Counted from the stretch's first letter, positions 2,527 to 17,911 are shown. The stretch: 24,579 bases of DNA from an uncultured Dehalococcoidales bacterium (GCA_964644205.1 CAZXVG010000001.1:1-24579), one strand, 5' to 3'. Numbers and translations are program-made. The notes: generated by a model not told the origin, from the sequence alone.

Positions 2527-2994
2527 CTATTTGTTGGTGATTCTACAGCCCGGCGGGGTCACCACCAGCACCGGGGTGAGGGACTGACTGACCACCTTCT
2601 CGGCGACGCTGCCTGACCACCAGCGGGAGACCCCGGTCTTACCGTGGGTACTCATCACGATGAGGTCTACCTGCTTCTCGTAGGCGTAGTCCAGTATCTC
2701 GTCGGCGGGCAGGCCGACGGCGATATCGGCCTCCGCGGCGATACCCTCCGCCTTCAGCCTGTCTACCATCTCGTTCAGGTAGTTCTTCGCCTGGACCTCA
2801 GCGGTCTCCTTGGCGTCGCGGTAGTCGCCTTCAGCCATCTCACGGGGGAGATAGCCGGGCAGACTGACCGGCTCGATTACCCGCAGCAGAATCACGGTGG
2901 GCACCTGACAGCCGGTGGCAATTGATTTCACATGCTCCAGGACGCACTCGGCCAGCTTGGAGCCGTCCATGGGCACCAGTATTTTTTGGTACAT
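2527..2994 (-). CDS. universal stress protein (UspA family)
   Basis: MYQKILVPMDGS N-terminus and DLIVMSTHGKTG...GSVAEKVV ATP-binding-type motif; AAGGAG RBS. Confidence 0.93.
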   Translation of the reverse strand: MYQKILVPMDGSKLAECVLEHVKSIATGCQVPTVILLRVIEPVSLPGYLPREMAEGDYRDAKETAEVQAKNYLNEMVDRLKAEGIAAEADIAVGLPADEILDYAYEKQVDLIVMSTHGKTGVSRWWSGSVAEKVVSQSLTPVLVVTPPGCRITNK

Positions 2995-3044
2995 CTCTAT
3001 CTCCTTCGCAGCTTTTCTGTTGGGGCGGGGTAGCTCGTAACGTG

Positions 3045-3539
3045 CTATTTACTTGCCTTTTCCTTCTTTTTCTTAGCCGAGACGGTGACCTTCTTGGCTT
3101 TAGCCTCGGCCTTCTTGGGCAGGGTGACCTCGAGGACGCCGTCTTCGTAATCGGCCTCAATCTTCCCGGCATCCACCTTGCTGGGGAGGGATATGGAGCG
3201 GTAGAAGCTGCCGTAGGAACGCTCGCAGCAGTAGTAGCTCTCCTCCTTAACCTCGCTCTCCGATTGCTTCTCTCCCTTGATGGTCAGCATGTCGCCCTCT
3301 ATGGAAACGTCGATGTCCTTTTCCTTTACCCCCGGGAGGTCTGCCTTGACCACAAACTTGTCTTCCTTCTCGAACACCTCCACCGCCGGGGCCCAGGCCA
3401 TCTCCCGTACCGGGAAGCGCCGCCACACGGCCGGGGCAAAAGGCCGGCCGAAGATGTCCTCGAAGCGCCGTTCCATCTCTTCCAGCTCCCGGAACGGTCT
3501 CCAGGGGGCGACTCCCCGGGACGGTTGCCATCTTTCCAT
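3045..3539 (-). CDS. small heat shock protein, Hsp20/alpha-crystallin family
   Basis: PAVEVFE...VVKADLPGV...IDVSIEGDMLTIKGE...ERSYGSFYRSISLP...ADYEDGVLEVTLPK; AAGGAGG RBS upstream. Confidence 0.95.
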   Translation of the reverse strand: MERWQPSRGVAPWRPFRELEEMERRFEDIFGRPFAPAVWRRFPVREMAWAPAVEVFEKEDKFVVKADLPGVKEKDIDVSIEGDMLTIKGEKQSESEVKEESYYCCERSYGSFYRSISLPSKVDAGKIEADYEDGVLEVTLPKKAEAKAKKVTVSAKKKKEKASK

Positions 3540-3595
3540 GGTTATAACTAATACCTCCTTTGCTTTGGTTAATCAGTGCTACCCCGCCTCTTTAG

Positions 3596-3660
3596 AGATT
3601 AGTCGATAAATGGTGACAAAGTCATAAAATGCAGGGCGAAAAAATAAAATAGTCGTGACA
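3596..3660 (-). promoter_or_regulatory. 65-bp shared promoter module, copy 1 (hsp20-usp)
   Basis: Minus strand reads TGTCACGACTATTTTATTTTTTCGCCCTGCATTTTATGACTTTGTCACCATTTATCGACTAATCT; -10 TAATCT; aligns without gaps to six other copies. Confidence 0.75.
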
Positions 3661-3706
3661 TATTCCAGGGGGTTTTGTCGGCCGGTCTTTCCGGATGTGA
3701 TATAAA

Positions 3707-3771
3707 TGTTATAAATCTTTTATCTTTTGGGGTTGGATTTTACAACAAATCTACACCCGGTGTGTTAAACT
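3707..3771 (+). promoter_or_regulatory. 65-bp shared promoter module, copy 2 (stand-alone receiver)
   Basis: TGTTATAAATCTTTTATCTTTTGGGGTTGGATTTTACAACAAATCTACACCCGGTGTGTTAAACT; -10 TAAACT; an extra half-site TGTGAT lies 11 bp upstream (3696-3701). Confidence 0.7.
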
Positions 3772-3826
3772 TTCACCTAAATCCTGTTCAGGGTAAGGGT
3801 GGCAGTCTGTTCGTGAGATAGGCGAG

Positions 3827-4177
3827 ATGAAGCAGCGGGTACTGGTAGTTGATGACGACCTGAGGATAGTAAGGTTTATCCGGCTCAAGCTTACCGCCAG
3901 CGGCTATCAGGTGTCTGCGACCACTGATGGAGGGGAGGCGCTGGAACTGGCGCGGGCAGAGCAACCCGATGTCACGGTTCTGGATATCATAATGCCCGGT
4001 ATGGACGGCTTTGAGGTGCTAAGGAAGCTGCGCGCCTTCTGCGACCGGCCGGTGATTGTCATCAGTGCCCGGTCGGAAAACGGCCCGGAAGCCCTTAAGC
4101 TCGGGGCCAGCGATTTCATGTTAAAGCCCTTTGACATTAACGACCTGGTGGCCCGGATTCAAAGAGCGCTGGGCTAG
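3827..4177 (+). CDS. single-domain response regulator (receiver only)
   Basis: VLVVDDD, phospho-acceptor DVTVLDIIMP, ISAR, FMLKPF; stop immediately after the receiver, no output domain. Confidence 0.9.
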   Translation: MKQRVLVVDDDLRIVRFIRLKLTASGYQVSATTDGGEALELARAEQPDVTVLDIIMPGMDGFEVLRKLRAFCDRPVIVISARSENGPEALKLGASDFMLKPFDINDLVARIQRALG

Positions 4178-4183
4178 GGCGAT

Positions 4184-4199
4184 GGGTGGCTGGCTACCC
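4184..4199. terminator. small GC hairpin between convergent receiver and kinase genes
   Basis: GGGTGGC-TG-GCTACCC with one G.U pair; no clear U-tract. Confidence 0.3.
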
Positions 4200-4205
4200 C
4201 CCGGC

Positions 4206-6959
4206 TCAGGCTCGGGGACTCTTTCCCAGGGGGATAGTGAACAGGAAGGTAGTGCCTTCCCCGGGTTTTGATTCCACCCAGATACGGCCGCCGTGAGCCT
4301 CCACCAGCCGCTTGCAGACTACCAGACCCAGGCCGGTCCCCTTGGTTTGGGCCCCTCCCAGCCGGCTGAAGGGCTCGAACAGGCCCTCTTGCTCCTCGGG
4401 CGGTATCCCCGGGCCGTGGTCGCTGACGCCGATGACCACGTTCTTCTTCTCCTGCCGGGCAAAGACCCTGACCTCGCTGCCCTGGGGAGAGAACTTGCAG
4501 GCGTTATCTATGAGGTTATAGAGGGTGCTCTCCAGCCTGACCGGGTCGACAATCACCCGGGGAAATTTATCGGGGATAGCAAGCGAGACCGGGTGTCTCG
4601 GGTGCTGACTGGCCGCCGCCAGCACGGCTTTGCCGGCGATTTCTCTGATGCTGACCGCCTTCTTATTCAGCTTCAGGCGGTCGGCCTGGTATCTCGATAG
4701 CTCTAATAGGTTATTGAGTATCGCGGTCAGCGACTCGGAGCCCCAGACCGCGTCCTCAAGGAGCTGGCGCCTTTCTTCTTGAGGGATTCTATCGTCCATG
4801 GCCGTCCTGATAGCGCCGTTTACCACGGTAAGAGGCGTCCTCAACTCGTGGGAGACGAGGCCGATGAACTCGTCTTTCAGTTGCTCCACCTTCTTGAGCT
4901 CGGTGATGTCCTGCCCCTGAGCGATGGTGGCCAGGGGGGTCCTGCCGTCGGTATCGAAGATTGTTGCCGAGTTCCAGAGGACGGTGCGCACAGAGCCGTT
5001 AACATGCCGAATGGGGACCTCGACGACCTCCCATCGTTCGCCCTCCCTGGTAGTAGAGTCTATCTTCTTCAGCGCCTCATCCAGTTTGTCCGCCGGGATG
5101 AGGATATCGACCTTTTTGCCCAGCACTTCATGGGCGCTGCGTCCCGTGAGCCGCTCGAAGGCGTGGTTAAAGCGGGTAATCTTTAGTTCCGGGTCCCAGA
5201 CGATAATCGGGGCATTGGCATGGGCAAACAGGTTATCCAGATAGTCACGCGTCTGGCGCAGGTTCTCCTCCATCTTCCGGCGCTCGGTGACGTCCTGGGC
5301 GGTGCCGAAGCCGCCTTTAAGCATGCCCTCCTCGTCGAACTCCAGCTCGGCTCTATCGCGCACCCATCTTATCTCATCTCCCACTATGATGCGGTGCTCG
5401 GCGTCGTACTCCTCGCCCTGGAGGGCTGCCTGCCACCTGCTGTCGACGTATTCCCGGTCTTCCGGGTGCACGCAGGAGAGGAACGTCTCGTAGGTCATGG
5501 GCTTACCCCTGGGGATGCCGAAGATACGGTGGGTCTCATCGGACCACAGGAGTTCATTACGCTGGACATCCAGACGCCAGCTGCCGGTTTGAGCCACCGC
5601 CTGAGCACGGTTCAGGTCCTGGTGGGCTTTCTGCAGCTCTGCTTCCGCCTCCTTGCGCTCGGTGATGTCACGATTGGAAGCACGGCGCCCCAGGAGATTG
5701 CCCTCGGCATCCAGAGCCGGTTGGCAGGCATGGCTTATCCAGCGCTCCTGTCCGTCGCGCCGTATTATCCGGAATTCAAGCTCGACCCCTTCCCGGTGGT
5801 GCATGTCTTCCTTCATGTGCGCCCTTACCCGCTGGCGGTCGTCGGGGTGCATTATGCTCAGGTAGAGCTTGGGGTCGCTGACAAACTCGGCGCTGGTATA
5901 TCCCGTGAAGCGTAGGCATGACGGCGAAACATAAAGGAACCGGTCATCCGGGTTGCGCCAGTACTCCCAGTCATAGGCGAACTCGGACACTATCCGGAAC
6001 TTTTCCTCGCTCTTTCTTAACGCCTCCTCCGCCTGCTTACGCTCGGTGATGTCGTTACCGTATATATTTACGTATCCCGCGCTGGTTACGGGAACAAAGT
6101 TCATCATAAATACGCGGTCTTTACCTGCGGCTTCGATTACCCGGGACGAGCCGCTGTCCAGCACCTCGGCGGCTATCTCTCGGTAGCGGCTAGGCAGCAG
6201 TTGCCCCGGCCGGCACTTGAAGGAAGGCAGCTGGGAGCAGACGGTATTGGCGAACAGGATGGAACCGTCCCTATCCACTCTCAGTACGGGACTGGGGTTT
6301 TCCTGGGGGAACCTGGCTAAATCTTCAAGCTGCAGGTTAGCCTGGGCAAGCTTGCTTTGCGCCTGTTTGTAAATAGCACTCTCGATGGTGTCCCACTTGT
6401 CATCCTGCTTGACCAGGGCAAACTGGTGGTTCTTGACCACGTCTATTACGGCGGCGCCGTCGCATTTATCCAGGCAGTAGCTACATATTGCCAGCATCCG
6501 GTATTTTCCGATAACAGCATTTACCTTGGCTTCATACTCGGTGAAGGCCCGCCAGTGATTTCTCCCCAGCCAGAAGGCGTTGCCGCTCAGCCGTAGACCG
6601 GCGTAGCCCCTGGCGAGAGCCTGTTCCAGTTTGCTGAGCCAGCCCTTGAGCACCCGGTCTTCGTTAAAGGTGCCCCCCGCTAGATACCATTCCCGGTAGG
6701 GCGATATCTCGATGCCGCCCTGGCTCAGGTGTTGGTCGAAACCCGGCACCGCTTCTCTCATGGCTTCTTGCGCCTCGGCGACCGTGAGCGGTTCCGAGGT
6801 AACCCACAGGCAGAACTCGTTACTCTCCAGGCCGGCCCGGAAATAGGGGACGAGGATACTAATCAGGTCCTGTTTGGTGCGGTAGAACTGGCAGAAGTGC
6901 GTTCCCCAGGGCACGCTGCCAATCACCTCGATGCCGCTGTATCGCGTTTCGCTTTCCAT
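4206..6959 (-). CDS. soluble sensor histidine kinase: MEDS domain + four PAS domains + HisKA + HATPase_c
   Basis: N-terminal PWGTHFCQFY...GYAGLRLSGN...MLAICSY (MEDS); PAS starts ENPSPVLRVD, YDWEYWRNPD, TGSWRLDV, NAPIIVWD; H-box SHELRTPL, N-box NLIDNACKFS, DHGPGI, LFEPF, GTGLGL; no transmembrane stretch. Confidence 0.92.
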   Translation of the reverse strand: MESETRYSGIEVIGSVPWGTHFCQFYRTKQDLISILVPYFRAGLESNEFCLWVTSEPLTVAEAQEAMREAVPGFDQHLSQGGIEISPYREWYLAGGTFNEDRVLKGWLSKLEQALARGYAGLRLSGNAFWLGRNHWRAFTEYEAKVNAVIGKYRMLAICSYCLDKCDGAAVIDVVKNHQFALVKQDDKWDTIESAIYKQAQSKLAQANLQLEDLARFPQENPSPVLRVDRDGSILFANTVCSQLPSFKCRPGQLLPSRYREIAAEVLDSGSSRVIEAAGKDRVFMMNFVPVTSAGYVNIYGNDITERKQAEEALRKSEEKFRIVSEFAYDWEYWRNPDDRFLYVSPSCLRFTGYTSAEFVSDPKLYLSIMHPDDRQRVRAHMKEDMHHREGVELEFRIIRRDGQERWISHACQPALDAEGNLLGRRASNRDITERKEAEAELQKAHQDLNRAQAVAQTGSWRLDVQRNELLWSDETHRIFGIPRGKPMTYETFLSCVHPEDREYVDSRWQAALQGEEYDAEHRIIVGDEIRWVRDRAELEFDEEGMLKGGFGTAQDVTERRKMEENLRQTRDYLDNLFAHANAPIIVWDPELKITRFNHAFERLTGRSAHEVLGKKVDILIPADKLDEALKKIDSTTREGERWEVVEVPIRHVNGSVRTVLWNSATIFDTDGRTPLATIAQGQDITELKKVEQLKDEFIGLVSHELRTPLTVVNGAIRTAMDDRIPQEERRQLLEDAVWGSESLTAILNNLLELSRYQADRLKLNKKAVSIREIAGKAVLAAASQHPRHPVSLAIPDKFPRVIVDPVRLESTLYNLIDNACKFSPQGSEVRVFARQEKKNVVIGVSDHGPGIPPEEQEGLFEPFSRLGGAQTKGTGLGLVVCKRLVEAHGGRIWVESKPGEGTTFLFTIPLGKSPRA

Positions 6960-7008
6960 AGCGTCTCCCCGGGGTTAGTTTAGGAGAAGCCTCTCTGGCT
7001 TGCATCAC

Positions 7009-7037: not shown

Positions 7038-7070
7038 CTGGCGGCGTTCTGTCGAAGGGCTTTAGTTAAA

Positions 7071-7135
7071 TGTCATGAAAACGTAATAGATTTCAGCTTC
7101 CTTTTATGACTTTGCAACGGGGTATGTCCTAAAGT
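7071..7135 (+). promoter_or_regulatory. 65-bp shared promoter module, copy 3 (gerW operon)
   Basis: TGTCATGAAAACGTAATAGATTTCAGCTTCCTTTTATGACTTTGCAACGGGGTATGTCCTAAAGT; -10 TAAAGT. Confidence 0.78.
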
Positions 7136-7221
7136 AACTGATGACCGGTAGCGTTTGAGCATCCGGTCAGCCGGCCTCTCTAAAGAGGCCGGGCAATATT
7201 TAAATGTCTAAGGAGGACAAC

Positions 7222-7587
7222 ATGGAAGACTTAGCGGCACTGGTAAAGTCCACGGTAGACGAAATCCAGAAGGTAATCTCTTCAGCCTCGATTGTGGAAG
7301 AACCAACGGTCGTCGGGGAGACCACTATTCTCCCTCTGGTGAGCACCGGCTTCTGGTTTGTCGGTGGCGGCGGACACGACAGGTTAACCGAGAAAAAGGT
7401 CAAGGAAGGTGAGAAATACGGTACCGGTGGTGGCGCCGGCATCCGGGCGGTGGCACTGGTAATCATAGATAAAGAGGGAACCAGGGTCGAGCCCATCAGG
7501 GGCCTTGTCTCGGGTACCATCGAGAAGATAGCCGAGAAGGTACCGGAGATGGTTACCGCCTTCCGGGGACAGCAGAAGCAGGGTTAG
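7222..7587 (+). CDS. GerW/YtfJ family protein
   Basis: EPTVVGETTILPLVSTGFWFVGGGG...GTGGGAGIRAVALVII pattern. Start moved from 7204 to ATG 7222, which has AGGAGG 5 nt upstream. Confidence 0.85.
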   Translation: MEDLAALVKSTVDEIQKVISSASIVEEPTVVGETTILPLVSTGFWFVGGGGHDRLTEKKVKEGEKYGTGGGAGIRAVALVIIDKEGTRVEPIRGLVSGTIEKIAEKVPEMVTAFRGQQKQG

Positions 7588-7591
7588 ACGA

Positions 7592-8167
7592 TTGGTTGCC
7601 GGTATCGTAGTTGGCAGTATAGTCGGCGCTATTGCCTTAGTACTGTGTATCCCGTTCTACGGGTCGATTGAGGTAAGGGCTGAGGAAACGTTCGACTTCA
7701 GACTGAGACTGAGGTGGCTGTTCGGCGCCTTCAAGCGGCAGTTTCCCGGCGCGAAGCCGGAGCCGGCGGGGGGCGAAGGCGGTAGGCGCGTCCCCGAGAA
7801 ATACCGTCCCCGGCTCGTGTCTGGGGTGCTTGGCGATAGCGAGGACAGAGCCAGTTTGAATAGGCTAGTGAGCGCCTTGGTTCGCTCCGTCCGGGTGGAG
7901 AGCCTTGAGGCCGATTTCAGGCTGGGGCTCGAAGACCCGGCGGACACGGCGCTTGTCTTCGGGCCCGCCGGAGCCGTCTCAGTGCTCATTAATCTCTATA
8001 CTGACCACAGTATCTGGCTGATTCCCGACATGGAGGGTGAGAGCCTTCAGGGACACCTGAACGCCAGATTTCGCTGGCGGCCGATACGATTGTTTCGCCC
8101 CGTGATGGGTTTCCTTTTCTCCGGGACGGGAAGAAGGATGGCAAAAAGGGCGCTCTTACGAAGATGA
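7592..8167 (+). CDS. DUF2953 (YtfI-like) protein with N-terminal membrane anchor
   Basis: Hydrophobic N-terminus; FRLGLEDPADTALVFG motif typical of DUF2953; adjacent to gerW as in ytfI-ytfJ; TTG start. Confidence 0.75.
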   Translation: MVAGIVVGSIVGAIALVLCIPFYGSIEVRAEETFDFRLRLRWLFGAFKRQFPGAKPEPAGGEGGRRVPEKYRPRLVSGVLGDSEDRASLNRLVSALVRSVRVESLEADFRLGLEDPADTALVFGPAGAVSVLINLYTDHSIWLIPDMEGESLQGHLNARFRWRPIRLFRPVMGFLFSGTGRRMAKRALLRR

Positions 8168-8469
8168 TAAAGCAGGAAAGAATCGTGGTGGAGGTGCCGC
8201 TTAGGAGCCGGGCCGTAACTGTGGTTACGGTAAGCGAGGTTACGGGCGACTATCACTTCGGTGATGACGACGTAAGCTTCTACTGTTTTAAGCGGCCGGT
8301 GGCGGTAGCCGTGGCTACCAGGGAGGGAGTCAGAGCCTTCGATAACGATGGTGAGGAGATGGAGACTGCCGAGTTCATCGGCAGGTTCCCGGATGCCAAA
8401 CCCCTGCTCGAGAAGAGACTGAAATCAAGGCGGAAACCTCAGAAGGACGCCAAGGGAGGAAAGGAGTGA
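8164..8469 (+). CDS. hypothetical protein, probable divergent GerW-like paralog
   Basis: 4-bp ATGA overlap with the upstream stop; KRPVAVAVATREGVRA resembles GerW IRAVALVIIDKEGTRV by eye. Confidence 0.7.
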   Translation: MIKQERIVVEVPLRSRAVTVVTVSEVTGDYHFGDDDVSFYCFKRPVAVAVATREGVRAFDNDGEEMETAEFIGRFPDAKPLLEKRLKSRRKPQKDAKGGKE

Positions 8470-8548
8470 CCCTGGCTGGCTCTCCCGCCCTTTCATTATA
8501 GGGGTGGGATTCCGGTCAGGGTTAATAGCCTGGCCAAACCCAACCAAG

Positions 8549-8590
8549 AACAAGGCGAGTAGTGCTCCACGCTAACTCGCCTTGTTTTGT
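8549..8590. terminator. probable bidirectional intrinsic terminator
   Basis: Perfect 12-bp stem AACAAGGCGAGT (8549-8560) / ACTCGCCTTGTT (8575-8586), 14-nt loop, followed by TTGT; lies between convergent genes. Confidence 0.7.
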
Positions 8591-8622
8591 AACCTTACGC
8601 TTATCCGGTGGCTTGAGTTTAG

Positions 8623-9063
8623 CTATTCCCCTAAAAGGAGCTTCAGTTCCGTGATATGCTCCTGCTCGTCCTGGATTACGTGCCGCACGGTGTGTTCCAG
8701 CTGGAAGTATTCGTACTTGAGCTCGTCACGCATCTCCCGGATCTTGTCCAGTATCCCCAGATAAAAGTCAACGGCGTGCTTTTCGTCGTTAAGATTGACC
8801 TTGAGGATGTTGTTCGTTTCCTTGGCCGGATGGGTTTCCGCGATGCCCATCGACGGTACGCCGCCGAGGTAGGCGCCGATTAGTTCGCGGAACATGTCCT
8901 CGTGGCCTTTCTCGTCGTCGGCAAGCTCCTTCAGCCGGGCGATTATCGGCTCGGCGTTTATCCCGCTGACGCACTCGGCATGAGAGAGGTACTGTATCCG
9001 CGCCGCGTGCTCTAGCTCGAGGGCCTGGTTCATCATCCGAAGTAGTTCATCCTTTTTCGCCAT
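8623..9063 (-). CDS. ferritin-like / bacterioferritin-like diiron protein
   Basis: Four-helix ferroxidase pattern: ALELEHAARIQY, DEKGH, DEKHAVDFY, DEQEH; AAGGAGG RBS. Confidence 0.85.
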   Translation of the reverse strand: MAKKDELLRMMNQALELEHAARIQYLSHAECVSGINAEPIIARLKELADDEKGHEDMFRELIGAYLGGVPSMGIAETHPAKETNNILKVNLNDEKHAVDFYLGILDKIREMRDELKYEYFQLEHTVRHVIQDEQEHITELKLLLGE

Positions 9064-9096
9064 TATATGGTCACCTCCTTTATTTCTGGCACCCCC

Positions 9097-9161
9097 ATTT
9101 TAGGTAAGCGGCTATTGAAAAGTAATAAAATTAGTGGCCAGGAAGTTACAAAAAGATAACA
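9097..9161 (-). promoter_or_regulatory. 65-bp shared promoter module, copy 4 (ferritin-like gene)
   Basis: Minus strand reads TGTTATCTTTTTGTAACTTCCTGGCCACTAATTTTATTACTTTTCAATAGCCGCTTACCTAAAAT; -10 TAAAAT. Confidence 0.78.
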
Positions 9162-9218
9162 TTTCGCTGAAGTTTACCGGGAAGGCCGATTTTCTGTTCC
9201 TGAATGGGCCCGGTTATC

Positions 9219-10133: not shown

Positions 10134-10716
10134 GCCCTGACTCCAGCTGCTCAAGGGTTCTTCCGCTGAGGACAGACTTTGGCTCCGTTTTCACCGGGTT
10201 CCGTCTATCGTCCGCCTTTTCATCACGCATCTTGACCAGCAGCCACTTCTTCCTGTCCCCCAGCGCCGTCAGGGCATAGCCGCCCTCCAGCTTCTTCCCC
10301 TTGAGCCAGACGGCGATATGCCCCTTTTTCAGGGCTTCTGCCATCGGGGTTTCCCGGCCCTTTTCTTCTGTCAGGTTGTGGTAGGTGCCGCTGTCCCAGA
10401 CTATCACCTTACCGGCGCCGTACTCCCCTTCCGGTATCATCCCCTCGAAGCCGGCATACTCCAGGGGGTGGTCTTCGGTGCGCATGGCCAGGCGCTTCTC
10501 AGCCGGGTCTGTCGAGGGGCCTTTAGGCACCGCCCAGGAAACGAGTACCCCGCCGATTTCCAGACGGAAATCGTAGTGGAGGCTTGAGGCGTCGTGCTTC
10601 TGGACAACGTATCTCGGCAATTTGGCCGGTTCCGCGCCCTCTTCCCCGGAAGGCTCTGAGGTGCGCCCGAAGTCTCGTTTCCGCCGGTACTCTCTCAAAG
10701 ACCCTTCTTTACTCAT
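10126..10716 (-). CDS. stand-alone LigD 3'-phosphoesterase domain protein
   Basis: LREYRRKRDFGRTSEP, YVVQKHDASSLHYDFRLE, SWAVPKGPS, RTEDHPLEY, YGAGKVIVWDSGTY. Confidence 0.93.
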   Translation of the reverse strand: MSKEGSLREYRRKRDFGRTSEPSGEEGAEPAKLPRYVVQKHDASSLHYDFRLEIGGVLVSWAVPKGPSTDPAEKRLAMRTEDHPLEYAGFEGMIPEGEYGAGKVIVWDSGTYHNLTEEKGRETPMAEALKKGHIAVWLKGKKLEGGYALTALGDRKKWLLVKMRDEKADDRRNPVKTEPKSVLSGRTLEQLESGHG

Positions 10717-10726
10717 ATTTCTCTCC

Positions 10727-11479
10727 TTACGGATTACCCGTCTGGCTGCCTCCCAGCATTTCTTTTAGCTTCAGGGCGTTCTCGGCGGCATATCCCTTTT
10801 CATCGTTGTCAAAGTAGCAGTATACCTCTTTCCCTTCGCCGGCCCAGTTGGAAAACGACTCCGCCCAGTCTGTGAGCGCTTCCTGGCCATAGCTTCCGGT
10901 ATAGGCGCCGTCCGGGCCGTGCAGCCTGACATAGACGAAGTCGCTGGTTACCGAACGCGGCGACTGTCTTCCCTCGAAGTCGTATATGCAGAAGGCGGCG
11001 CCCCTTTCGGCCAGGGCGTCTTCGGTCTGCTTACCGAACCAGCTCGGGTTACGGAACTCGAAGGCGTATCTACGACCCTGGGGCAGGGCCCTGAGGAAGC
11101 CCTCCAGCCTCTCGATGTTTGGTTTCCAGTGCGGCGGCAGCTGAAACAGGATTGGCCCCAGTTTATCCCCCAGCGTGGCTACCCGCTCCCCGAGGTTGGC
11201 CAGCGGCTCTGCCGGGTCCTTGAGCTTTTTCATATGGGTCATATAGCGGCTGGCCTTGACGGAGAACCGGAAGCCCTCCGGCACCGAGTCCCGCCACCTG
11301 GCGAAGGTCTCCTTCTCCGGCAGCCGATAGAAGGTGTTGTTGATTTCCGCGGTCTGGAAGTGCTGCGCATAGTATTCCAGCATGCGGCTGTCGGGCAGTT
11401 CTCGGGGGTAGAAGGGGCCCTTCCAGTGCTGGTAGTGCCACCCGGACGTCCCGATGTGTATCGATTTCGGTTCTCTCAA
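10727..11479 (-). CDS. DUF72 (YecE/YunF-like) TIM-barrel protein
   Basis: IHIGTSGWHY, EINNTFY, FSVKASRYMTH, LFQLPP, AFEFRNPSW, YVRLHG, YCYFDND; TTG start. Confidence 0.92.
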   Translation of the reverse strand: MREPKSIHIGTSGWHYQHWKGPFYPRELPDSRMLEYYAQHFQTAEINNTFYRLPEKETFARWRDSVPEGFRFSVKASRYMTHMKKLKDPAEPLANLGERVATLGDKLGPILFQLPPHWKPNIERLEGFLRALPQGRRYAFEFRNPSWFGKQTEDALAERGAAFCIYDFEGRQSPRSVTSDFVYVRLHGPDGAYTGSYGQEALTDWAESFSNWAGEGKEVYCYFDNDEKGYAAENALKLKEMLGGSQTGNP

Positions 11480-11543
11480 TCTGCTCTCTCTTGCTTCTAT
11501 AATGGGACACGCCTTTAGGCTGAGCCATTGGCCGCGCAGCTAA

Positions 11544-11608
11544 ATTCAACATCCTTTCCCGTGTAAAAATCATAAAATCGGGCCCTTGAATCTGACATTT
11601 GTGTAACA
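11544..11608 (-). promoter_or_regulatory. 65-bp shared promoter module, copy 5 (DUF72-LigD operon)
   Basis: Minus strand reads TGTTACACAAATGTCAGATTCAAGGGCCCGATTTTATGATTTTTACACGGGAAAGGATGTTGAAT; half-sites conserved, -10 weaker (TTGAAT). Confidence 0.62.
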
Positions 11609-11637
11609 TTTTACACCTACGTTTCCCGCATCCAAAA

Positions 11638-11702
11638 TGTCATGGTTTTGTAAGTTTTTGCCCCGCGGTTTTATGACTTTTTGATGCCGTCGGGTGTAGA
11701 TT
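11638..11702 (+). promoter_or_regulatory. 65-bp shared promoter module, copy 6 (Lrp-domain/HesB-like/usp operon)
   Basis: TGTCATGGTTTTGTAAGTTTTTGCCCCGCGGTTTTATGACTTTTTGATGCCGTCGGGTGTAGATT; -10 TAGATT. Confidence 0.78.
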
Positions 11703-11742
11703 ACCTATCGGCTTGCGGGAATCTTGGAGAAGGAGGTGGCAC

Positions 11743-12030
11743 ATGCTGTCCAAGGCTTTTGTCCTCATTGAGACGGAGAGGGGTAAGGCTAGAGAGATTA
11801 ACCGGTTGCTGCGCAGGTTCAAGGAGATAATGTCAACCGACCTGGTGACGAACCCCTATGATATAATAGCGCTTGTCGAGGGAAGGACGGAGAAACAGCT
11901 TGAGGACTTTGTCAGTCAGGAACTGCGCTCGATTGACGGTATTACCCGGATGGTATTTTGCGAGGTAGTGCCGGCGGTGAGTCAAACGATGAGCCAAAGA
12001 GGGGTATCTAGGAGCCCGCTTTTGCTCTGA
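11743..12030 (+). CDS. Lrp/AsnC ligand-binding (RAM) domain-only protein
   Basis: KAFVLIETERG...LVTNPYDIIALVE...IDGITR; no HTH. Start moved to ATG 11743 with AGGAGG RBS. Confidence 0.85.
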   Translation: MLSKAFVLIETERGKAREINRLLRRFKEIMSTDLVTNPYDIIALVEGRTEKQLEDFVSQELRSIDGITRMVFCEVVPAVSQTMSQRGVSRSPLLL

Positions 12031-12083
12031 AGATACCATCGACCCGCGAAGTTCGTAGGGAATAAAGCCGGGAGGTCTGGCCA

Positions 12084-12371
12084 ATGATTAACTTGAGTGA
12101 CGATGTAAGATGGCTTCTAAAGGACGGGCGTGGGGAGTACTGCGCTAGCGAAGAAATATGTTTCCGGCTCATGCCGCCCACAGGCGGAAGGGTTACCCTT
12201 ATGCTGGACGTGCCGGAGGACGATGATGTCGTCGTGGAAGACGGCGGTGTTATCTTGCTTCTCGTGGGGCGTGGCGTCGCCTCAACCCTGGAGGGGACGA
12301 CCCTGGGTATCCAAGAGACCGAAGCTGGGCCGAGGCTGGTTATAAATCAGCCGTCGGCGGTGCTGGTGTAG
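12084..12371 (+). CDS. HesB/IscA-like fold hypothetical protein
   Basis: Pattern CFRL...LMLDVPEDDDVVVEDGGVILLLVG...LEGTTLG...GPRLVI resembles HesB-like small proteins; GGAGG upstream; lacks the canonical C-terminal CGC. Confidence 0.55.
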   Translation: MINLSDDVRWLLKDGRGEYCASEEICFRLMPPTGGRVTLMLDVPEDDDVVVEDGGVILLLVGRGVASTLEGTTLGIQETEAGPRLVINQPSAVLV

Positions 12372-12374
12372 CTA

Positions 12375-12818
12375 ATGTTTAAAAAGATTCTGGCGTGCCT
12401 GGATGGTTCCAAACTGGCGGAGCAAATCTTGCCTTATGCTGGAGAGCAGGCCTTACGCTTTGAAAGCCAGCTCGTCCTCCTGCATGTACTAGCCCCGACG
12501 GATTTGCCCCCCGCTGCGGGGATAGGGGTCGGAGAGCTCATGAGAAAACAGGCTCAGGCGGAAGCAAAGTTCAAGACTTACCTTGAGCAACTGGCGGAGA
12601 GATTGCTCCGGGAGTATGATTTGCGGGTGGAGAGCGCCGTCGAAAGGGGAACTGTGGGGGAGACTGTTATCAATTACGCCACCCGGAATAGCGTTGAACT
12701 CATTGTGATTGCCACTCACGGCGAGGGCGGGCTGAAAAGGTTATTATTCGGAAGCGTCGTCGATTCTGTGCTGCGAAACTCTGATATACCCGTGCTGGTG
12801 ATTAGACCCGCTGCTTAG
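12375..12818 (+). CDS. universal stress protein (UspA family)
   Basis: MFKKILACLDGS, LIVIATHGEGG...GSVVDSVLRNS. Confidence 0.92.
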   Translation: MFKKILACLDGSKLAEQILPYAGEQALRFESQLVLLHVLAPTDLPPAAGIGVGELMRKQAQAEAKFKTYLEQLAERLLREYDLRVESAVERGTVGETVINYATRNSVELIVIATHGEGGLKRLLFGSVVDSVLRNSDIPVLVIRPAA

Positions 12819-12972: not shown

Positions 12973-15900
12973 TCACTCCCCGAGGTCGAATTGCAGCGTC
13001 TCCCCCGGCGCTAGCTCAAAGGTATCGTCTCCGAAGCCGACGGTTATCGGGGCCAGGGCATAACGCCGTGTGCTTACCGTGAGACGATTCTGGGTGATGA
13101 GCAGGTTTATCCAGTGCTTACGGTAGAGAATGTCAAACCGTAGCTCCTTTAAGTCGCTGGGCAGGGATGGGTTAAGCTGCAGCCGGTCCTGGCGGGCTTC
13201 GATTCCGGCATAACAGCGCTGAACCAGGTCAACGGTGCCCGCCATGGCCCCGAGGTGAATCCCTTCGGGGGTGGTGCCTCCCTGGGTGTCGGAGACGTCG
13301 CTCTCCAGGGCTTCCTGGAACAGGTGCCAGGAAAGCTCGCGCTCCGAGCGGGCCAATACCCAGGCGTGAACCACCCGGCTTAGGGTAGACCCGTGAGAGG
13401 TGCGTTTCAGGTAGTATTCGATGTTCCGGGGGATGGTCTCGTGTTCGAAAGGGTAGTCGAGACGCCGGAATATCTCCCCCAGCTCGTCGGCGGAGAGGAG
13501 ATAGAAGAGCATGAGCACATCGGCCTGTTTGGAGAGTTTATAGCGGTTGGGGGTGTCCCCCTCCGCTTCGAGGATGCGGTCCAGCCGCTGGACGTCCCCG
13601 TACTTTTTCTGGTAGCCCTCCCAGTTAAACTCTGCAAGCTGCTCATAGCCCTCGAACTGGCTGATGATTCCGTCGCCGTGAAAGACGACCCGCATCTTGC
13701 GGCTGATGTCTTCCCAGTGCTCCACCTCATCCCGCCTCAGAGCGAGCTTGTCCCACAGCGCCTCGCGGCGGTCGCCGGGAAGAAGCTCGATTGTCTCCAG
13801 GGCGCGGCACAACACCCAGACGGCCATGATATTGGTGTAGGCGTTGTTATTGATTCCCGGCTCGGCGGAATCGGGATAGGCGTCGTGAAACTCGTCGGGG
13901 CCCATGACGTTATGAATCTCGTAGCGGCCCAGGGAGCGGTTGTAGCGGGCGATACTTGCCCAGAAACGGGCAATCTCGATGAGCATCTCCGCTCCGTAGA
14001 AGGAGAGGAAGTTGATGTCGCCGGTAACCTGGTAGTAGAGCCACACATTGTAGGCGATGGCCAGGTTGATATGGCGCTGCAACTGGGAGTTATCCGCTAT
14101 CCAGCGCCCGGAGCACGGGTTCAGGTGCAGCTTCTGGCTCTCCTCGCGGCCGTTGCTGCCGCTCTGCCAGGGATACATGGCTCCCTGGTAGCCGGCTTGC
14201 CTGGCTGCCCACTGGGCCTCGGGAAGCCGGCGGTAGCGGTACATCAGCAGGGCGCGGGTAATATCTGGAATCCTGAAATTGAGGAAGGGGAAGATAAATA
14301 GCTCGTCCCAGAGGACATGCCCCCGGTAGGCTTCCCCGTGCAGACCCCGGGGCGGGACGCCGGCGTCCACCTCGATGGTGTGCGGTGACACGGTCTGCAG
14401 CAGGTGGAAGATGTGCAGATTGAGGATAAGCGCCACGCGTTCGCTGTCCTTGATGGCGATGTGACTGCGCCGCCACAGGAGGTCCCAGCTCAGGACGTGC
14501 TGCTTGAGCAAATCGTCAAAGCCCGGGGCGTGCCTAAGCTGCTGACACGACTCGATGACGCTTTCCGAGATGGCATGGTCTCGGGAGGTATAGAGGGCGA
14601 TAATCTTCTCGATGGTGGCCTCTTTCCCCTCCTTAAGCTCAAGGGAAAACTCCTGGGCAATGTAGCCCGGTTCTGCTATTACCCGGGGCTTTAGGGAGAG
14701 CCGCTCACCGCCGCAGAACAGCCTGGTTCGTGCCGCCTCGGCGATAAGGATATGCGACTGGTTCGTCTCCATGTGGAGGTAGACCGTTTCCTGGTCAACC
14801 GATTTGGTGCTCACGGGACTAAGGTGGCGGTTTTCTAGCTGCCGGTAGCGCGCCACCCCGCTGTTGGTCACCCGTCCGTCAAGGGCCGAGCTGACGGAGA
14901 TGCGTCCCCCCCAGTTCTCGGGGACGATGGTTGTTTCCAGTCCGGCCAGGTGGGGACTGGCCATGCTGACAAAGCGGCGCTGGAATATCCGTGTTCGGCG
15001 CCCCTTCTCGTCGGCAAAGCGAATCAGTCGGCTGAGTACGCCCTGGCGTATGTTTAGCTCCTGACGGTATTCCAGGAGGTTTGCCTGCTCGACGCTAAAC
15101 CAGTCCCCGTCCTGGAAGCGGAGGTTAACGGGTAGCCAGTTGGGCAGGTTCACCAGGCTCTCGTTCTCGATGGTCTGTCCCTTGACCTCGGTCTTAAGGC
15201 GGTTGTAACAGCCGGCGGCGTAGCTCCCCGGATAGTGGACGCCGTCGGCGCTGGCTTCCGGGGCGGCGCCCCGGGTGGCAAAATAGCCGTTTCCCAGCGT
15301 GCACAGCGCCTCCCGCAGCCCTTCCTCTTCGGGGGCAAAGTTATCATAGGCTATCACCCAGGTGCCCCGGGCGGTCTCCTTTTCGGCCCTCGCCAGAAGC
15401 TCCTCCAGGAACGCCCTGACCTCTTCCGGGCTGCGTAGCGCATAGTGAGCGCTTGTCTTACGATTGCCCCCGCCGACCACGATAGAGATGCCCCGGTCAC
15501 CAATGGCGCCAAAGGCGTCTTCGTCAGTAGTGTCGTCGCCGATGTATACCGGCAGGACCCGTCTCCCGTCGGCGTGTAGCGCCTCGATAAGGTGCATTAG
15601 GGCCTTGCCCTTGTCCCAGTCGATATCCGGTCTCAGTTCCAAGACCTTCTTACCGGCGGACTTCCGTAGTTCCGGGTAGTGTCGGGCTACCTCGTCGAAC
15701 TGCTGCCGCAGCACGTCCAGGTCGGCGGTCTTAACCTGACGGTAGTGGACGGCGATGGCAAAGCGCTTGCGCTCCACCCAGGCTCTGGCTACCTTTAGCC
15801 TCTCGCGTAGCTCCGCCTCCGCCTTGTCCAGCGTGGCCAGGAAGGGTTTACCCACCTCCTGGTCCCGGTACCGTCCCTCCGGGCCGGCGATGTCGAAGCC

Positions 15901-16941
15901 GTGACTGCCGGCGTAGGCAATGTCGCTGATGCCGACCATGTTCTGCACGTCACCGAGGTCGCGGCCGCTGACGATGGCTACCGAGTAATGGTCAGCTAGC
16001 CTTCTGATTACCCGCCTGGTTTCCTCGGGGAGGATGGCCTGGGCGGGCCGGGCGACAATCGGCGTCAGCGTGCCGTCGTAATCGAGAAAGATGACCGGCG
16101 TGTGCTCCCGCAGCCGCTTTAGTATCGCCTCCTTTTTCTCCAGGGCGGAATCAAGGCTCCTTATCGCCCTTGGCCTGTCGGATTTACGGGGCCCGGCCTT
16201 TCCCGTTGCCAGCTCGGATAAATCCCGCACCACGATATCGGCGCCCCGTTTCTTCATCTCTCTAGCCTGACACGTCCGGTCCACCCCGATAACCAGCCCA
16301 AACCCGCCGCGGCGGCCGGCCTCGACGCCGGCCAGCGAGTCCTCCACGATGGCCGTCTTATCGGGGCTCGCGCCGAGGCGCCGGCAGGCTTCGAGGAAGA
16401 TGGCCGGGTCGGGTTTACCCTTCAGCTTGAGCCTGGCGGAATCGACACCGTCCACCTTGACTTCGAAGAGCTCACTGGCCCCGGCTGCCGCGAGCACGGC
16501 CTCGGCGTTACGGCTGGCCGAGATGATTGCGGTATGGATGCCCCTCTTTTTCAGGTTTTTGACTAGTCTGACAGAGGACGGGTAGGCCCGTCCCCCCTCC
16601 TTCTGGAGCCGTTCCAGGAAGTACCGGTTCTTCCGGTTGCCGAGCCCGCAGACGGTATCCCGGTCCGGGCCGTCACCCGGCTTTCCGCGGGGTAGCGAGA
16701 TACCCCGTGAGTCTAAGAAGCCCTTCACCCCGTCGTAGCGCGGCTTACCGTCTACGTAGCGGCGGTAGTCGGTCTCGGCGTCGAATGGCTGAAAGCCCCG
16801 CTCGCCGCCCTGTGCGGCGCGCCGCTTGAGGTAGTCGTCGAACATCTGCTTCCAGGCGGCGGCGTGGATACCGGCGGTGTCGGTTATCACCCCGTCCATA
16901 TCGAAGATTACCGCCTCTATATTCTTAAGGCTAAACCCCAT
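12973..16941 (-). CDS. three-domain fusion: beta-phosphoglucomutase-like HAD + trehalose-6-phosphate phosphatase + GH65 phosphorylase (OtsB1/Rv2006-like architecture)
   Basis: IFDMDGVITDTA, GKPDPAIF, VEDSLAGV (beta-PGM-like); FLDYDGTLTPI, VSGR, KGKA, GDDTTDEDAF (T6PP); LCTLGNGYFATRG, GEAYRGHVLWD, GPDEFH, KQADV, GIHLGAMAG (GH65). Confidence 0.92.
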   Translation of the reverse strand: MGFSLKNIEAVIFDMDGVITDTAGIHAAAWKQMFDDYLKRRAAQGGERGFQPFDAETDYRRYVDGKPRYDGVKGFLDSRGISLPRGKPGDGPDRDTVCGLGNRKNRYFLERLQKEGGRAYPSSVRLVKNLKKRGIHTAIISASRNAEAVLAAAGASELFEVKVDGVDSARLKLKGKPDPAIFLEACRRLGASPDKTAIVEDSLAGVEAGRRGGFGLVIGVDRTCQAREMKKRGADIVVRDLSELATGKAGPRKSDRPRAIRSLDSALEKKEAILKRLREHTPVIFLDYDGTLTPIVARPAQAILPEETRRVIRRLADHYSVAIVSGRDLGDVQNMVGISDIAYAGSHGFDIAGPEGRYRDQEVGKPFLATLDKAEAELRERLKVARAWVERKRFAIAVHYRQVKTADLDVLRQQFDEVARHYPELRKSAGKKVLELRPDIDWDKGKALMHLIEALHADGRRVLPVYIGDDTTDEDAFGAIGDRGISIVVGGGNRKTSAHYALRSPEEVRAFLEELLARAEKETARGTWVIAYDNFAPEEEGLREALCTLGNGYFATRGAAPEASADGVHYPGSYAAGCYNRLKTEVKGQTIENESLVNLPNWLPVNLRFQDGDWFSVEQANLLEYRQELNIRQGVLSRLIRFADEKGRRTRIFQRRFVSMASPHLAGLETTIVPENWGGRISVSSALDGRVTNSGVARYRQLENRHLSPVSTKSVDQETVYLHMETNQSHILIAEAARTRLFCGGERLSLKPRVIAEPGYIAQEFSLELKEGKEATIEKIIALYTSRDHAISESVIESCQQLRHAPGFDDLLKQHVLSWDLLWRRSHIAIKDSERVALILNLHIFHLLQTVSPHTIEVDAGVPPRGLHGEAYRGHVLWDELFIFPFLNFRIPDITRALLMYRYRRLPEAQWAARQAGYQGAMYPWQSGSNGREESQKLHLNPCSGRWIADNSQLQRHINLAIAYNVWLYYQVTGDINFLSFYGAEMLIEIARFWASIARYNRSLGRYEIHNVMGPDEFHDAYPDSAEPGINNNAYTNIMAVWVLCRALETIELLPGDRREALWDKLALRRDEVEHWEDISRKMRVVFHGDGIISQFEGYEQLAEFNWEGYQKKYGDVQRLDRILEAEGDTPNRYKLSKQADVLMLFYLLSADELGEIFRRLDYPFEHETIPRNIEYYLKRTSHGSTLSRVVHAWVLARSERELSWHLFQEALESDVSDTQGGTTPEGIHLGAMAGTVDLVQRCYAGIEARQDRLQLNPSLPSDLKELRFDILYRKHWINLLITQNRLTVSTRRYALAPITVGFGDDTFELAPGETLQFDLGE

Positions 16942-16987
16942 GCCGCCTTTCTCCCGTTACCCGGATAGGCCCCATCCAGTTAGGTCT

Positions 16988-16996
16988 AGTCTACCA
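16988..16996 (-). promoter_or_regulatory. extended -10 (TGGTAGACT) upstream of the trehalose fusion gene
   Basis: TGn-TAGACT about 47 bp upstream of the ATG; no recognisable -35 and no copy of the shared module. Confidence 0.4.
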
Positions 16997-17235
16997 CATT
17001 TTGGGGCTTGCTTTTAGCCAAAGAGGCGGTGTCAGTCACGCTGGTACCGAGAAGCCTGGCTAACGCTTCCCGGGTATTGAAGGCGTCGTGGGTGGTGACG
17101 ATGGCTCTTGCCTGGTGAACCGGCGTATGCCCGGCGAACAGGGTCTCTAGACTCCGTCCCCTGGTAATAGCTCCGCCTCATCTCCGGTTCCCGGCCCTTC
17201 CGGGGGCCCATCGAGCCCGGCGGCTTACCCTGCCG

Positions 17236-17655
17236 TTAGCTAGCCGGTTCTATCGTTACCGTGAATATCTGGTCTTTGAGCGGTGCGCCCCCGCCGACCA
17301 GTTGGTAGGAAATCGTCACCTCTGTCTCCCCGGGCTGAAGCGCCTGGAAGCGGGCCAGACTGACCACAGACGGGCCAACCAGTGGGCAATAGCCGGGAGC
17401 AATGGAGCAGGCGCTTTCCCCCGATACGCAGGTAGCACACACCGTCTCCTTCAGCTCGAGCAGGGTCTCATCGTAGTGCTGCTCCCAGGTGGTGGGGTCG
17501 GAACAGGCGAGTTCCACGGCTATATTGAACTCCTGCCCTGCCTCTACGGTAACGGGGATGCTCGGGTCCGTGTAAGTATTTATAGTGCCTCCCGCACAGC
17601 CGACCAGTGGCCAGATGCCGACCAGGGCCGCTAACAGTAAAAGTGGTTTCCTCAT
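17236..17655 (-). CDS. lipoprotein with chagasin/I42-like Ig fold and Cys-rich insert
   Basis: Signal peptide with lipobox LVGC; VTVEAGQEFNIAV...DPTTW...RFQALQPGETEVTISY...FTVTI follows the I42 pattern; GGAGG RBS. Confidence 0.7.
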   Translation of the reverse strand: MRKPLLLLAALVGIWPLVGCAGGTINTYTDPSIPVTVEAGQEFNIAVELACSDPTTWEQHYDETLLELKETVCATCVSGESACSIAPGYCPLVGPSVVSLARFQALQPGETEVTISYQLVGGGAPLKDQIFTVTIEPAS

Positions 17656-17667
17656 TCTTGGTCCTCC

Positions 17668-17695
17668 ATATTTACTACAATATATTTACTACAAT
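17668..17695. repeat. perfect 14-bp tandem duplication (ATATTTACTACAAT x2)
   Basis: 17668-17681 equals 17682-17695, abutting the GGAGG RBS of the lipoprotein gene. Confidence 0.9.
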
Positions 17696-17725
17696 AGAGT
17701 AAGCAGCCAATATCTCGGAGTGCTC

Positions 17726-17911
17726 TTAGGTCTTTTTGACTGCCGCCTTCACCTTCCTGGTCATCTCCGGAGACTTTAGCTGTTCCTCGGTGAGTCCGTG
17801 AGACTCTCTGCCGTGCTGTTTTGCCTTCTCGATTACCTCCTGTTCGGTATCACCCTCGGCGACAAACGGGCAATGAAATCCTACCTGGCTACAGGCGAAC
17901 TTGTAGGGCAT
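17726..17911 (-). CDS. DUF1059 small putative metal-binding protein
   Basis: FACSQVGFHC (CxxxGxxC), AEGDTEQEV, HGRESH (HxxxxH); AAGGAGG RBS. Confidence 0.88.
   Translation of the reverse strand: MPYKFACSQVGFHCPFVAEGDTEQEVIEKAKQHGRESHGLTEEQLKSPEMTRKVKAAVKKT

Follow-up and report, generated by a model that had tools for sequence, protein, structure and literature searches.

A shared tripartite promoter module heads stress-protection genes in a Dehalococcoidales contig and across Dehalococcoidia, and is probably read by an OmpR-type response regulator

We analyzed a 24,579-nt stretch of DNA from an uncultured Dehalococcoidales bacterium (GCA_964644205.1, CAZXVG010000001.1:1-24579; hereafter, the window), in which positions 2,527 to 17,911 had been predicted to form a compact dormancy island paralleling the mycobacterial DosR gene set. 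We found that the gene units of this region are headed by copies of one 80-nt promoter module, that the same module recurs next to genes across the class Dehalococcoidia, and that in relatives it is linked to genes for an OmpR/PhoB-type response regulator (RR) and for a histidine kinase (HK) carrying a MEDS domain and PAS domains. The cluster looks like a real co-regulated stress programme, unrelated to mycobacterial DosR, and we consider it probable that it represents a local amplification of a class-wide regulon, governed by this RR and kinase and read through the tripartite module. The window is a whole contig of a metagenome-assembled genome (MAG); the closest named relatives of its proteins belong to Chloroflexota, Dehalococcoidia and Dehalococcoidales, and its population is frequently encountered in metagenomes of salt-marsh sediment. 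Dehalococcoidia belong to the most abundant bacteria that inhabit anoxic sediments and the subsurface, and they grow extremely slowly; to our knowledge, almost none have been cultured and next to nothing has been described of how they regulate survival. No prior description of the module or the regulon was found in the searchable literature.

When the intergenic regions were anchored on TTTATGAC, six of them fell in register, and the resulting 80-nt module reads AAATGTCATA-N4-TGTAAC-TTTT-N9-ATTTTATGACTTTT-N15-TAnAAT. Box 1 (AAATGTCATA) occupies roughly -74 to -66 and box 2 (TTTGTAAC) roughly -62 to -55, the latter followed by a T-tract, and box 3 (ATTTTATGACTTTT) spans the -35 position, with ATGACT as the -35 hexamer. 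This weak hexamer is embedded in a long conserved box, TTTTATGACTTTT, and is separated by an 18-nt spacer from a sigma-70-like -10 element, TAnAAT. Because every copy in the window has a TAnnnT hexamer exactly 18 nt 3' of ATGACT, we regard the module as a complete promoter. Boxes 1 and 2 (AAATGTCATA-N4-TGTAAC) can be read either as direct repeats spaced 11 bp or as a 6-4-6 palindrome; in the former reading, ATGTCAT-N4-TTGTAAC consists of 7-bp units that repeat every 11 bp between -74 and -55, with a single related box over the -35.

The pattern ATGTYAY-N26-TTTATKAYTTT matches the window six times, always in intergenic DNA and directed to the next gene, and not once in 100 shuffles. An 80-nt position weight matrix (PWM), which gave no score above 0 when the window was shuffled 20 times, adds a seventh, weaker copy. 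Module A (3587-3666, minus strand; PWM 72.1; boxes ATGTCAC and TTTTATGACTTT, with TAATCT 18 nt after ATGACT) heads the genes for Hsp20 and universal stress protein 1 (USP1), and the weaker copy, A' (3701-3780, plus strand; PWM 43.7), divergent from A, heads the gene of a receiver-only RR. Module B (7065-7144, plus; PWM 63.9), divergent from the kinase gene, heads an operon of YtfJ/GerW, DUF2953-like and 101-aa genes, and module E (9088-9167, minus; PWM 63.5) heads a ferritin-like gene. Modules F (11535-11614, minus; PWM 54.8) and C (11632-11711, plus; PWM 78.6) stand back-to-back, the former heading an operon for DUF72, LigD phosphoesterase (PE) and LigD polymerase (Pol), the latter heading RAM-only, 95-aa and USP2 genes. 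Module D (17967-18046, minus; PWM 76.5), whose boxes 1 and 2 are perfectly palindromic (GTTACA-N4-TGTAAC), heads a DUF1059 gene and probably that of an I42-like lipoprotein. All copies are gene-proximal, the leaders predicted from the coordinates being ~27-62 nt long. These copies uphold the original claim that one shared module heads the units of the region, the trehalose gene excepted. Divergent back-to-back pairs, their upstream ends 5-110 nt apart, are frequent (3587-3780 and 11535-11711; also in L158, L228, L071 and L178), and a single regulator assembly might serve both promoters of such a pair.

The module is evidently not the ordinary promoter of this organism. In a contig of the same sample and GC content (L246), a near-identical USP paralog operon uses TTGACA-17-TATCAT and has no module, and a generic sigma-70 scan of the region returned 6 promoters versus 5.7 expected, i.e., no enrichment; these two results are our reason for not regarding the module as a generic promoter. 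L246 had been considered as a second site of the regulon, was dropped on account of its ordinary promoter, and was kept as a negative control. A riboswitch or small RNA as the cause of the intergenic conservation was ruled out, as Rfam gave no match.

A loose form of the pattern, scanned over public genomes at one per species, returned at least 119 stretches, 20 of them from MAGs labelled Dehalococcoidia, Dehalococcoidales or Chloroflexi. Among the genome matches listed, only these 20 loci have the full architecture, with PWM scores of 52.6-83.3; the other 99 score at most 29.6 and are evidently AT-rich chance matches. A stricter pattern, scanned over metagenomes, returned at least 120 contigs of 37-60% GC with at least 157 module copies. 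Judged by these scans, the module is conserved across the class Dehalococcoidia and is not specific to the island.

The metagenome contigs were chosen by the DNA pattern alone, and 104 of the 120 listed have enough sequence upstream of the module to hold a gene. In 36 of these 104, a gene encoding a REC+Trans_reg_C regulator ends 35-72 nt upstream of the module, on the same strand. Its domains (PF00072, E 1e-31; PF00486, E 5.7e-16) assign it to the OmpR/PhoB type, and its closest solved relatives in the PDB are Mycobacterium tuberculosis PhoP first and RpaA second, with RegX3, MtrA and KdpE also among them. The family is very abundant in environmental data (3982 matches at E<=1e-40); a homolog search recovered only environmental proteins, 77-85% identical, without extending to cultured Dehalococcoides. 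At least 16 of the 36 contigs have a MEDS kinase gene divergent from the RR gene, the N-terminus of its product being 72-81% identical to that of the window kinase. The recurrent core locus of the relatives can be written as HK<>RR-module->RAM-only-DJ-1/PfpI-USP(1-3)-Hsp20-KorA-KorB, and the OmpR-type RR is its sole DNA-binding protein.

The window contains the core pieces KorAB, USP, Hsp20, HK, RAM-only and USP in a rearranged order, with extra module-headed units inserted among them, and no DNA-binding RR gene is found where it would normally lie, between the kinase gene and module B. Between the Hsp20 and YtfJ genes lie a receiver-only RR gene, lacking a DNA-binding domain (3827-4177, plus; PF00072 alone), and, convergent with it, the gene of a 917-aa cytoplasmic MEDS-3xPAS-HisKA-HATPase histidine kinase (4206-6959, minus; Pfam), two genes that the original prediction had not listed and that turned out to be central. 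The same convergent arrangement is found in L014 and L111, with whose receiver-only paralogs that of the window groups by sequence features, and the L111 receiver gene is likewise preceded by a weak module. In another locus (L150:3235-8091), the module-linked OmpR-type RR (65% identical) adjoins a genuine KaiC (PF06745, E 6e-102), KaiB and a GAF-PAS kinase, and not a MEDS kinase, which suggests that MEDS-fused and KaiBC-coupled inputs may be interchangeable.

The window kinase has no predicted transmembrane segment and, by Pfam, no GAF domain. An AlphaFold model of its MEDS domain (predicted local distance difference test, pLDDT, 87; predicted template-modelling score, pTM, 0.88) was matched by Foldseek to FlaH (1.2e-8), to the CI domain of KaiC (TM 0.66) and to archaeal KaiC-like proteins (PH0186 among the matches). 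The KaiC/RecA-like fold that these matches indicate is in line with the literature, which classes MEDS as an inactivated KaiC domain, 'iKaiC' (PMC5847659); beyond this classification, the literature gave nothing relevant on MEDS kinase function. The Walker A motif GxxxxGK[ST] is absent from the MEDS region, where the beta1-alpha1 loop reads HFCQFYRTKQD, so that the domain is expected to have neither ATPase nor clock function. In 35 MEDS domains drawn from many bacterial and archaeal phyla (54-63% identical across phyla; 6360-6959 in the window), H21, C23, C50, C159, C166 and H178 are invariant; speculatively, these six residues could form a metal, Fe-S or thiol redox site.

The available RNA evidence consists of assembled contigs of public metatranscriptomes, from few runs. 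Within 19.9 kb, full-length RNA contigs at 99-100% identity were found, in four runs, for the Hsp20 gene (all four) and the ferritin-like gene (one) only, the ferritin-like contigs, from run X28, showing 0 mismatches. KorA, FBA and the 95-aa gene were present in a fifth run and Hsp20 was not; the RNA contig of the 95-aa gene covers 12075-12315 (run X29). These RNA contigs fit a strong, condition-dependent expression of module genes.

We thus arrived at the hypothesis that the region represents the lineage-specific expansion of a class-wide Dehalococcoidia stress-protection regulon, every unit of which would be transcribed from the module as a specialized sigma-70-type promoter. The cytoplasmic MEDS(iKaiC)-PAS kinase, possibly responding to redox or energy state, would phosphorylate an OmpR/PhoB-family RR, which in the source organism would be encoded outside the window. 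Once phosphorylated, the RR would occupy the boxes and, like PhoB, bring in RNA polymerase as a class II-type activator, and the module-driven receiver-only paralog may serve as a phosphate sink or provide feedback. The presumed role would be survival of stress or of non-growth.

Two known systems come close to this proposal. The first is that of PhoB/PhoP, to whose PhoP the REC+Trans_reg_C regulator of the relatives is closest; the module can be read as 7-bp units at an 11-bp period, to be compared with the E. coli Pho box CTGTCAT-N4-CTGTCAT, and one box may stand in for a good -35. The module differs in having a further pair of boxes upstream, at -74 to -55, besides the single box at -35, in permitting a palindromic reading, and in its cargo of stress genes rather than phosphate genes, and the kinase differs in being cytoplasmic and carrying an iKaiC domain. 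The second likeness is to the cyanobacterial KaiC-SasA/CikA-RpaA output pathway and to the KaiBC stress systems of non-phototrophs, given that RpaA is second-closest to the RR, that the kinase has an iKaiC domain (PMC5847659), and that the L150 regulator adjoins KaiC-KaiB and a GAF-PAS kinase. However, the window has no KaiA, KaiB or KaiC, and its MEDS domain lacks Walker A.

Several points weigh against the proposal. No DNA-binding RR is encoded in the window, and the source organism's own copy was not found, exact look-ups of the 1322-aa fusion, the HD-GYP RR and a 130-aa RR having given no match by which to extend the contig; the adjacency of RR and module could stem from synteny of the core locus and not from regulator-operator pairing. 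A Dehalococcoidia locus described below (L253) has no module in its 24 kb, showing that the gene association can exist without a module regulator. The PWM was trained on Dehalococcoidia sites, which makes its score separation partly circular; both collection scans give samples, their counts being lower bounds; the gene calls in the fetched loci are crude (greedy open reading frames, ORFs); and the strict pattern favours the best-conserved module copy, that of the core locus. Finally, sparse assembled RNA contigs cannot show induction.

As to what the regulon contains, Pfam and NCBIfam confirmed all the families that the original prediction had placed in the region, DUF2953 by a weak match only. 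Behind module A, on the minus strand, lie the genes for Hsp20 (3045-3539; PF00011, E 3.6e-26) and USP1 (2527-2994; PF00582, E 1.6e-28). The module B operon, on the plus strand, comprises YtfJ/GerW (7204-7587; PF09579, E 2.3e-13), a DUF2953-like membrane protein with a predicted N-terminal transmembrane helix (7592-8167; PF11167, E 4.2e-4, 20.8 bits versus a cut-off of 22) and, last, a 101-aa protein matched by neither Pfam nor NCBIfam (8164-8469). This neighbourhood recalls the GerW/YtfJ-YtfI sporulation pair; YtfJ is clear by Pfam, yet scores 43 bits against the 116-bit cut-off of the NCBIfam equivalog TIGR02874, and the adjoining DUF2953 match falls below the Pfam cut-off. In agreement with the prediction, no sporulation genes are in view in the window. 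A long-loop hairpin terminator (8547-8588; dG -25.4 kcal/mol, z -5.8, then UUUUG), overlooked by the generic terminator scan, separates this operon from the convergent ferritin-like gene (146 aa; 8623-9063, minus; PF00210, E 3.8e-12). The LigD operon, also on the minus strand, begins with DUF72 (YecE-like; 10727-11479; PF01904, E 2.7e-78) and continues with a stand-alone LigD 3'-phosphoesterase domain (10126-10716; PF13298, E 6e-45; TIGR02777 above cut-off) and a stand-alone polymerase/primase domain (9219-10154; PF21686, E 8.7e-91; TIGR02778 above cut-off); neither a ligase domain nor Ku was found in the window by Pfam or NCBIfam. Module C is followed, on the plus strand, by a RAM-only protein (the Lrp/AsnC ligand-binding domain without a helix-turn-helix, HTH; 11743-12030; PF01037, E 6.9e-10), with weak similarity (25% identity) to the RAM-only protein encoded first in the relatives' core operon, by the 95-aa protein, without a family match in Pfam or NCBIfam (12084-12371), and by USP2 (12375-12818; PF00582, E 7.5e-31). 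Behind module D, on the minus strand, lie DUF1059 (17726-17911; PF06348, E 4.3e-15) and a lipoprotein with the lipobox LVGC and a weak, below-cut-off match to chagasin/I42 inhibitors (17236-17655; PF09394, E 1.2e-4).

The claim that these genes form a compact island stood at strain level, where contigs reproduce the island exactly, but not beyond it: distant relatives conserve the core alone (HK, RR, RAM, DJ-1, USP, Hsp20 and KorAB), their other module-headed genes being scattered, and the LigD/DUF72, YtfJ and ferritin units occur in this arrangement only in the organism's own strains. The compact island is, on this comparison, lineage-specific. In the other listed module-bearing loci we found no homologs of the window's YtfJ, DUF2953-like, 101-aa, 95-aa, DUF72 and I42-like genes, which gives these units the look of recent recruits. 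Horizontal acquisition of the island was ruled out, given the even GC content, the lack of tRNA or mobile genes, and the clade-wide occurrence of the element.

In the listed loci of relatives, as judged by Pfam and similarity, the first genes behind modules encode a GlgC-like nucleotidyltransferase (11 cases), glycosyltransferases and Hsp20 (5-6). Also module-headed are genes for a 69-aa 4Fe-4S ferredoxin (5), a short-chain dehydrogenase/reductase (4), an M50/CBS protease, a CBS pair, glyoxalase, DJ-1/PfpI, ferritin-like protein, rubrerythrin, hemerythrin, BON, Asp23 and ribonucleotide reductase (RNR), an operon for a phosphoribosyltransferase (PRTase), a dienelactone-hydrolase-like protein and hemerythrin, DUF1059 (L018, L143 and L224), and small CxxC and small winged-helix proteins. 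Among the commonest first genes are those of small proteins (57-93 aa) with a conserved FCPxCKxLxT-like motif and no Pfam match, in ~13 cases (e.g., L127:451-624, L157:1404-1631 and L111:5436-5663). In L197, Ku and then a full-length LigD stand behind a recognizable module, and genes for non-homologous end joining (NHEJ) thus appear to have been recruited under the module twice independently, in the window and in L197.

The DosR regulon includes Hsp20 (hspX), many USPs, ferredoxin, a class II RNR (nrdZ), a Zn-metalloprotease (Rv2625c), a PRTase (Rv0571c) and otsB1 (PMC7753917). In Dehalococcoidia, Hsp20, USPs, ferredoxin, RNR, a Zn-metalloprotease with CBS, a CBS pair and a PRTase are module-headed as well, so that the overlap in families is wider than the original prediction had listed. 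A further likeness is that the DosR/DevR two-component system drives its ~50 scattered or clustered units via a shared box near -35; fdxA, hrp1 and hspX are members of that regulon. The parallel does not extend to regulation. DosR is of the NarL/LuxR type (REC + GerE HTH), whereas the window RR is receiver-only and that of relatives is REC+Trans_reg_C; DosS and DosT are GAF-haem kinases, whereas the kinase here combines MEDS, three PAS domains, HisKA and HATPase; and the operator is unrelated, the window holding a single 1-mismatch Dev box, at 23408 in coding sequence, against 1.74 expected by chance. NarL-type regulator, GAF-haem kinase and Dev box are thus all absent, the OtsB1-like gene is here merely a neighbour, and the DosR resemblance is convergent, not homologous. 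The expectation of stress-protective genes in units behind one shared non-DosR cis-element was borne out, as was that of a different regulator class, which is probably an OmpR/PhoB-type RR with a MEDS(iKaiC)-PAS kinase rather than a NarL-type RR with GAF-haem kinases.

Of the alternatives to a stress-protection regulon under an activating RR, a true dormancy or quiescence switch survives best, though we consider it doubtful. Such a switch, equivalent to DosR, would be induced by growth arrest or by redox or O2 shifts and would be required for non-replicating survival. It would accord with the families shared with the DosR list (Hsp20, USPs, ferredoxin, RNR, M50/CBS, CBS pair and PRTase + hydrolase; PMC7753917), with the frequency of storage-carbohydrate genes (GlgC-like, glycosyltransferases) under the module, with the twofold recruitment of NHEJ genes (window and L197) and with the cytoplasmic PAS/iKaiC sensor. 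However, the same families form generic stress regulons (sigma-B, RpoS), the OtsB1-like gene stands outside the regulon, and no hibernation factor or respiration-switch genes were seen under the module. The original interpretation is overall partly supported: for gene organization, content and regulator class, but not for dormancy as such. A 238-aa protein of L228, considered as a hibernation factor, was dropped, as it carries a cold-shock domain only.

Still more tentative, and in our view fairly unlikely as a whole, is a class-wide survival switch of uncultured sediment Dehalococcoidia in which an input derived from KaiC, be it the MEDS/iKaiC kinase or, in some lineages, genuine KaiBC, would read energy, redox or time-of-day and drive an RpaA/PhoP-like RR onto the tripartite module, the gene set having converged with that of DosR in at least seven families and having repeatedly recruited NHEJ and storage-carbohydrate genes.

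Returning to the module itself, the regulon could be the same and its sign the opposite. A repressor, be it the OmpR-type RR or another protein, would occlude the -35 and loop to the upstream palindrome, and the genes would fire on derepression. Box 3 does overlap the -35, ATGACT matches TTGACA at 4/6 positions and together with a good -10 could make a promoter that works unaided, and boxes 1 and 2 are readable as the palindrome GTYAYA-N4-TGTAAC, perfect in module D and in L099. It is established, however, that OmpR/PhoB-family regulators bound at -35 are mostly activators, and the 18-nt spacer and imperfect -35 suit an activator-dependent promoter; repression is, in our judgement, unlikely.

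It is also conceivable in principle, though decidedly unlikely, that another transcription factor binds the module and that the RR is merely syntenic with it. The candidate would be a small (~90-105 aa) Crp-like winged-helix protein with a weak HTH_Crp_2 match (E 4e-5), whose gene comes first behind a module in L007, L014, L111, L157, L167, L197 and L232, or a factor encoded elsewhere, and palindromic boxes 1-2 would suit a dimeric HTH protein. Yet the window and most module loci lack the small protein, and the OmpR-type RR is adjacent far more often (36/104 listed contigs). An alternative-sigma promoter with an extended -35 and UP-like T-tracts, needing no activator, is very improbable, since, long, highly conserved and fixed in its spacing to the -10 though the -35-region box TTTTATGACTTTT is, the -10 TAnAAT is sigma-70-like, sigma recognition leaves the conserved boxes at -74 to -55 unexplained, and beside the modules it is the two-component pair and not sigma/anti-sigma genes that recurs.

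The trehalose gene takes a separate place. This gene (12973-16941, minus; 1322 aa; Pfam, NCBIfam) follows the DUF1059/I42 unit on the same strand at a distance of 294 nt, with an extended -10-like element, TGGTAGACT, ~55 nt before its ATG. Its predicted resemblance to OtsB1 holds for the architecture, the Pfam/NCBIfam domain order (HAD/beta-PGM-like + T6PP-like + GH65) and ~1,320 aa being those of the OtsB1 (Rv2006) type; Rv2006 itself is 1,327 aa long. It does not hold for regulation, as no module stands upstream of the gene here or in its relatives in L245, L251, L252 and L253. Homologs, 59-76% identical, are named Chloroflexota/Dehalococcoidia. The fusion lies among unrelated genes in L251, and in L252 (1-16480) and L245 (1477-8002) it closes a GlgB-GH57-GlgE-TreS/Mak cluster, and the genes that come next encode a NarL-type RR, a receiver-only protein and a HisKA_3 kinase, the sole module nearby (PWM 83-84, very strong) standing just before the kinase gene. 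In L253 (3668-15599; GCA_046538235.1, Dehalococcoidia), USP-M50/CBS-USP genes are found, and the fusion is directly followed by LigD PE and LigD Pol. The USP-USP-M50/CBS arrangement of L253 resembles M. tuberculosis Rv2623-Rv2625c. The association of the trehalose fusion with LigD PE/Pol and USPs thus seems to recur independently of the module, and in the window the fusion is best described as a neighbour, not a shown member of the regulon.

Two other known systems invite comparison. The low-oxygen-activated (lxa) locus of Burkholderia cenocepacia is reportedly a compact, chromosomal, USP- and Hsp20-rich locus proposed for anoxic persistence; it shares with the present region its compactness and content and differs in phylum and regulator, and we know of no shared promoter module of this kind described for it. 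Stress-inducible NHEJ is known from the sigma-G-dependent ykoUV of Bacillus and from the general-stress-controlled ku/ligD of Sinorhizobium. The placement of DUF72-PE-Pol (window) and Ku-LigD (L197) behind a stress module is similar, whereas the window has only the Pol and PE domains, without ligase or Ku, and has them co-operonic with DUF72, for which we know of no role.

The sequence-recognizable module offers a read-out of the whole regulon in any MAG and comes with a named candidate regulator pair, the iKaiC-PAS kinase and the OmpR-type RR, and the Hsp20 and ferritin-like genes would provide metatranscriptomes with marker transcripts for stress. That the gene set converges with the DosR set at family level suggests a recurrent toolkit of non-growing cells, and the repeated recruitment of LigD/Ku supports end-joining repair as part of quiescence programmes.

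A number of further observations were made around these loci. In L246 (10001-15189), the USP paralog (>=90% identity) heads an operon encoding three rubrerythrin-domain proteins, PRC/DUF2171, a disulfide oxidoreductase and DOMON, which looks like a second, separately controlled oxidative-stress unit. At the right end of the window (21196-24535, minus), a PAS histidine kinase, a receiver-only RR, an RR with HD-GYP (HD_5) and a further receiver protein form a second signalling cluster that has no module copy and suggests cyclic-di-GMP signalling. The longest rhomboid ORF (18106-18915) overlaps the start of a class II aldolase-like gene (18805-20094) by ~110 nt, an overlap removed by the shorter, 208-aa rhomboid (18106-18732) of metagenome gene calls. 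To the left of the window, a sister contig (L120:12021-13189) encodes, just past KorA, a flavodiiron-type protein (Lactamase_B + ODP + flavodoxin), which would fit an oxygen-sensitive anaerobe carrying out O2/NO detoxification.

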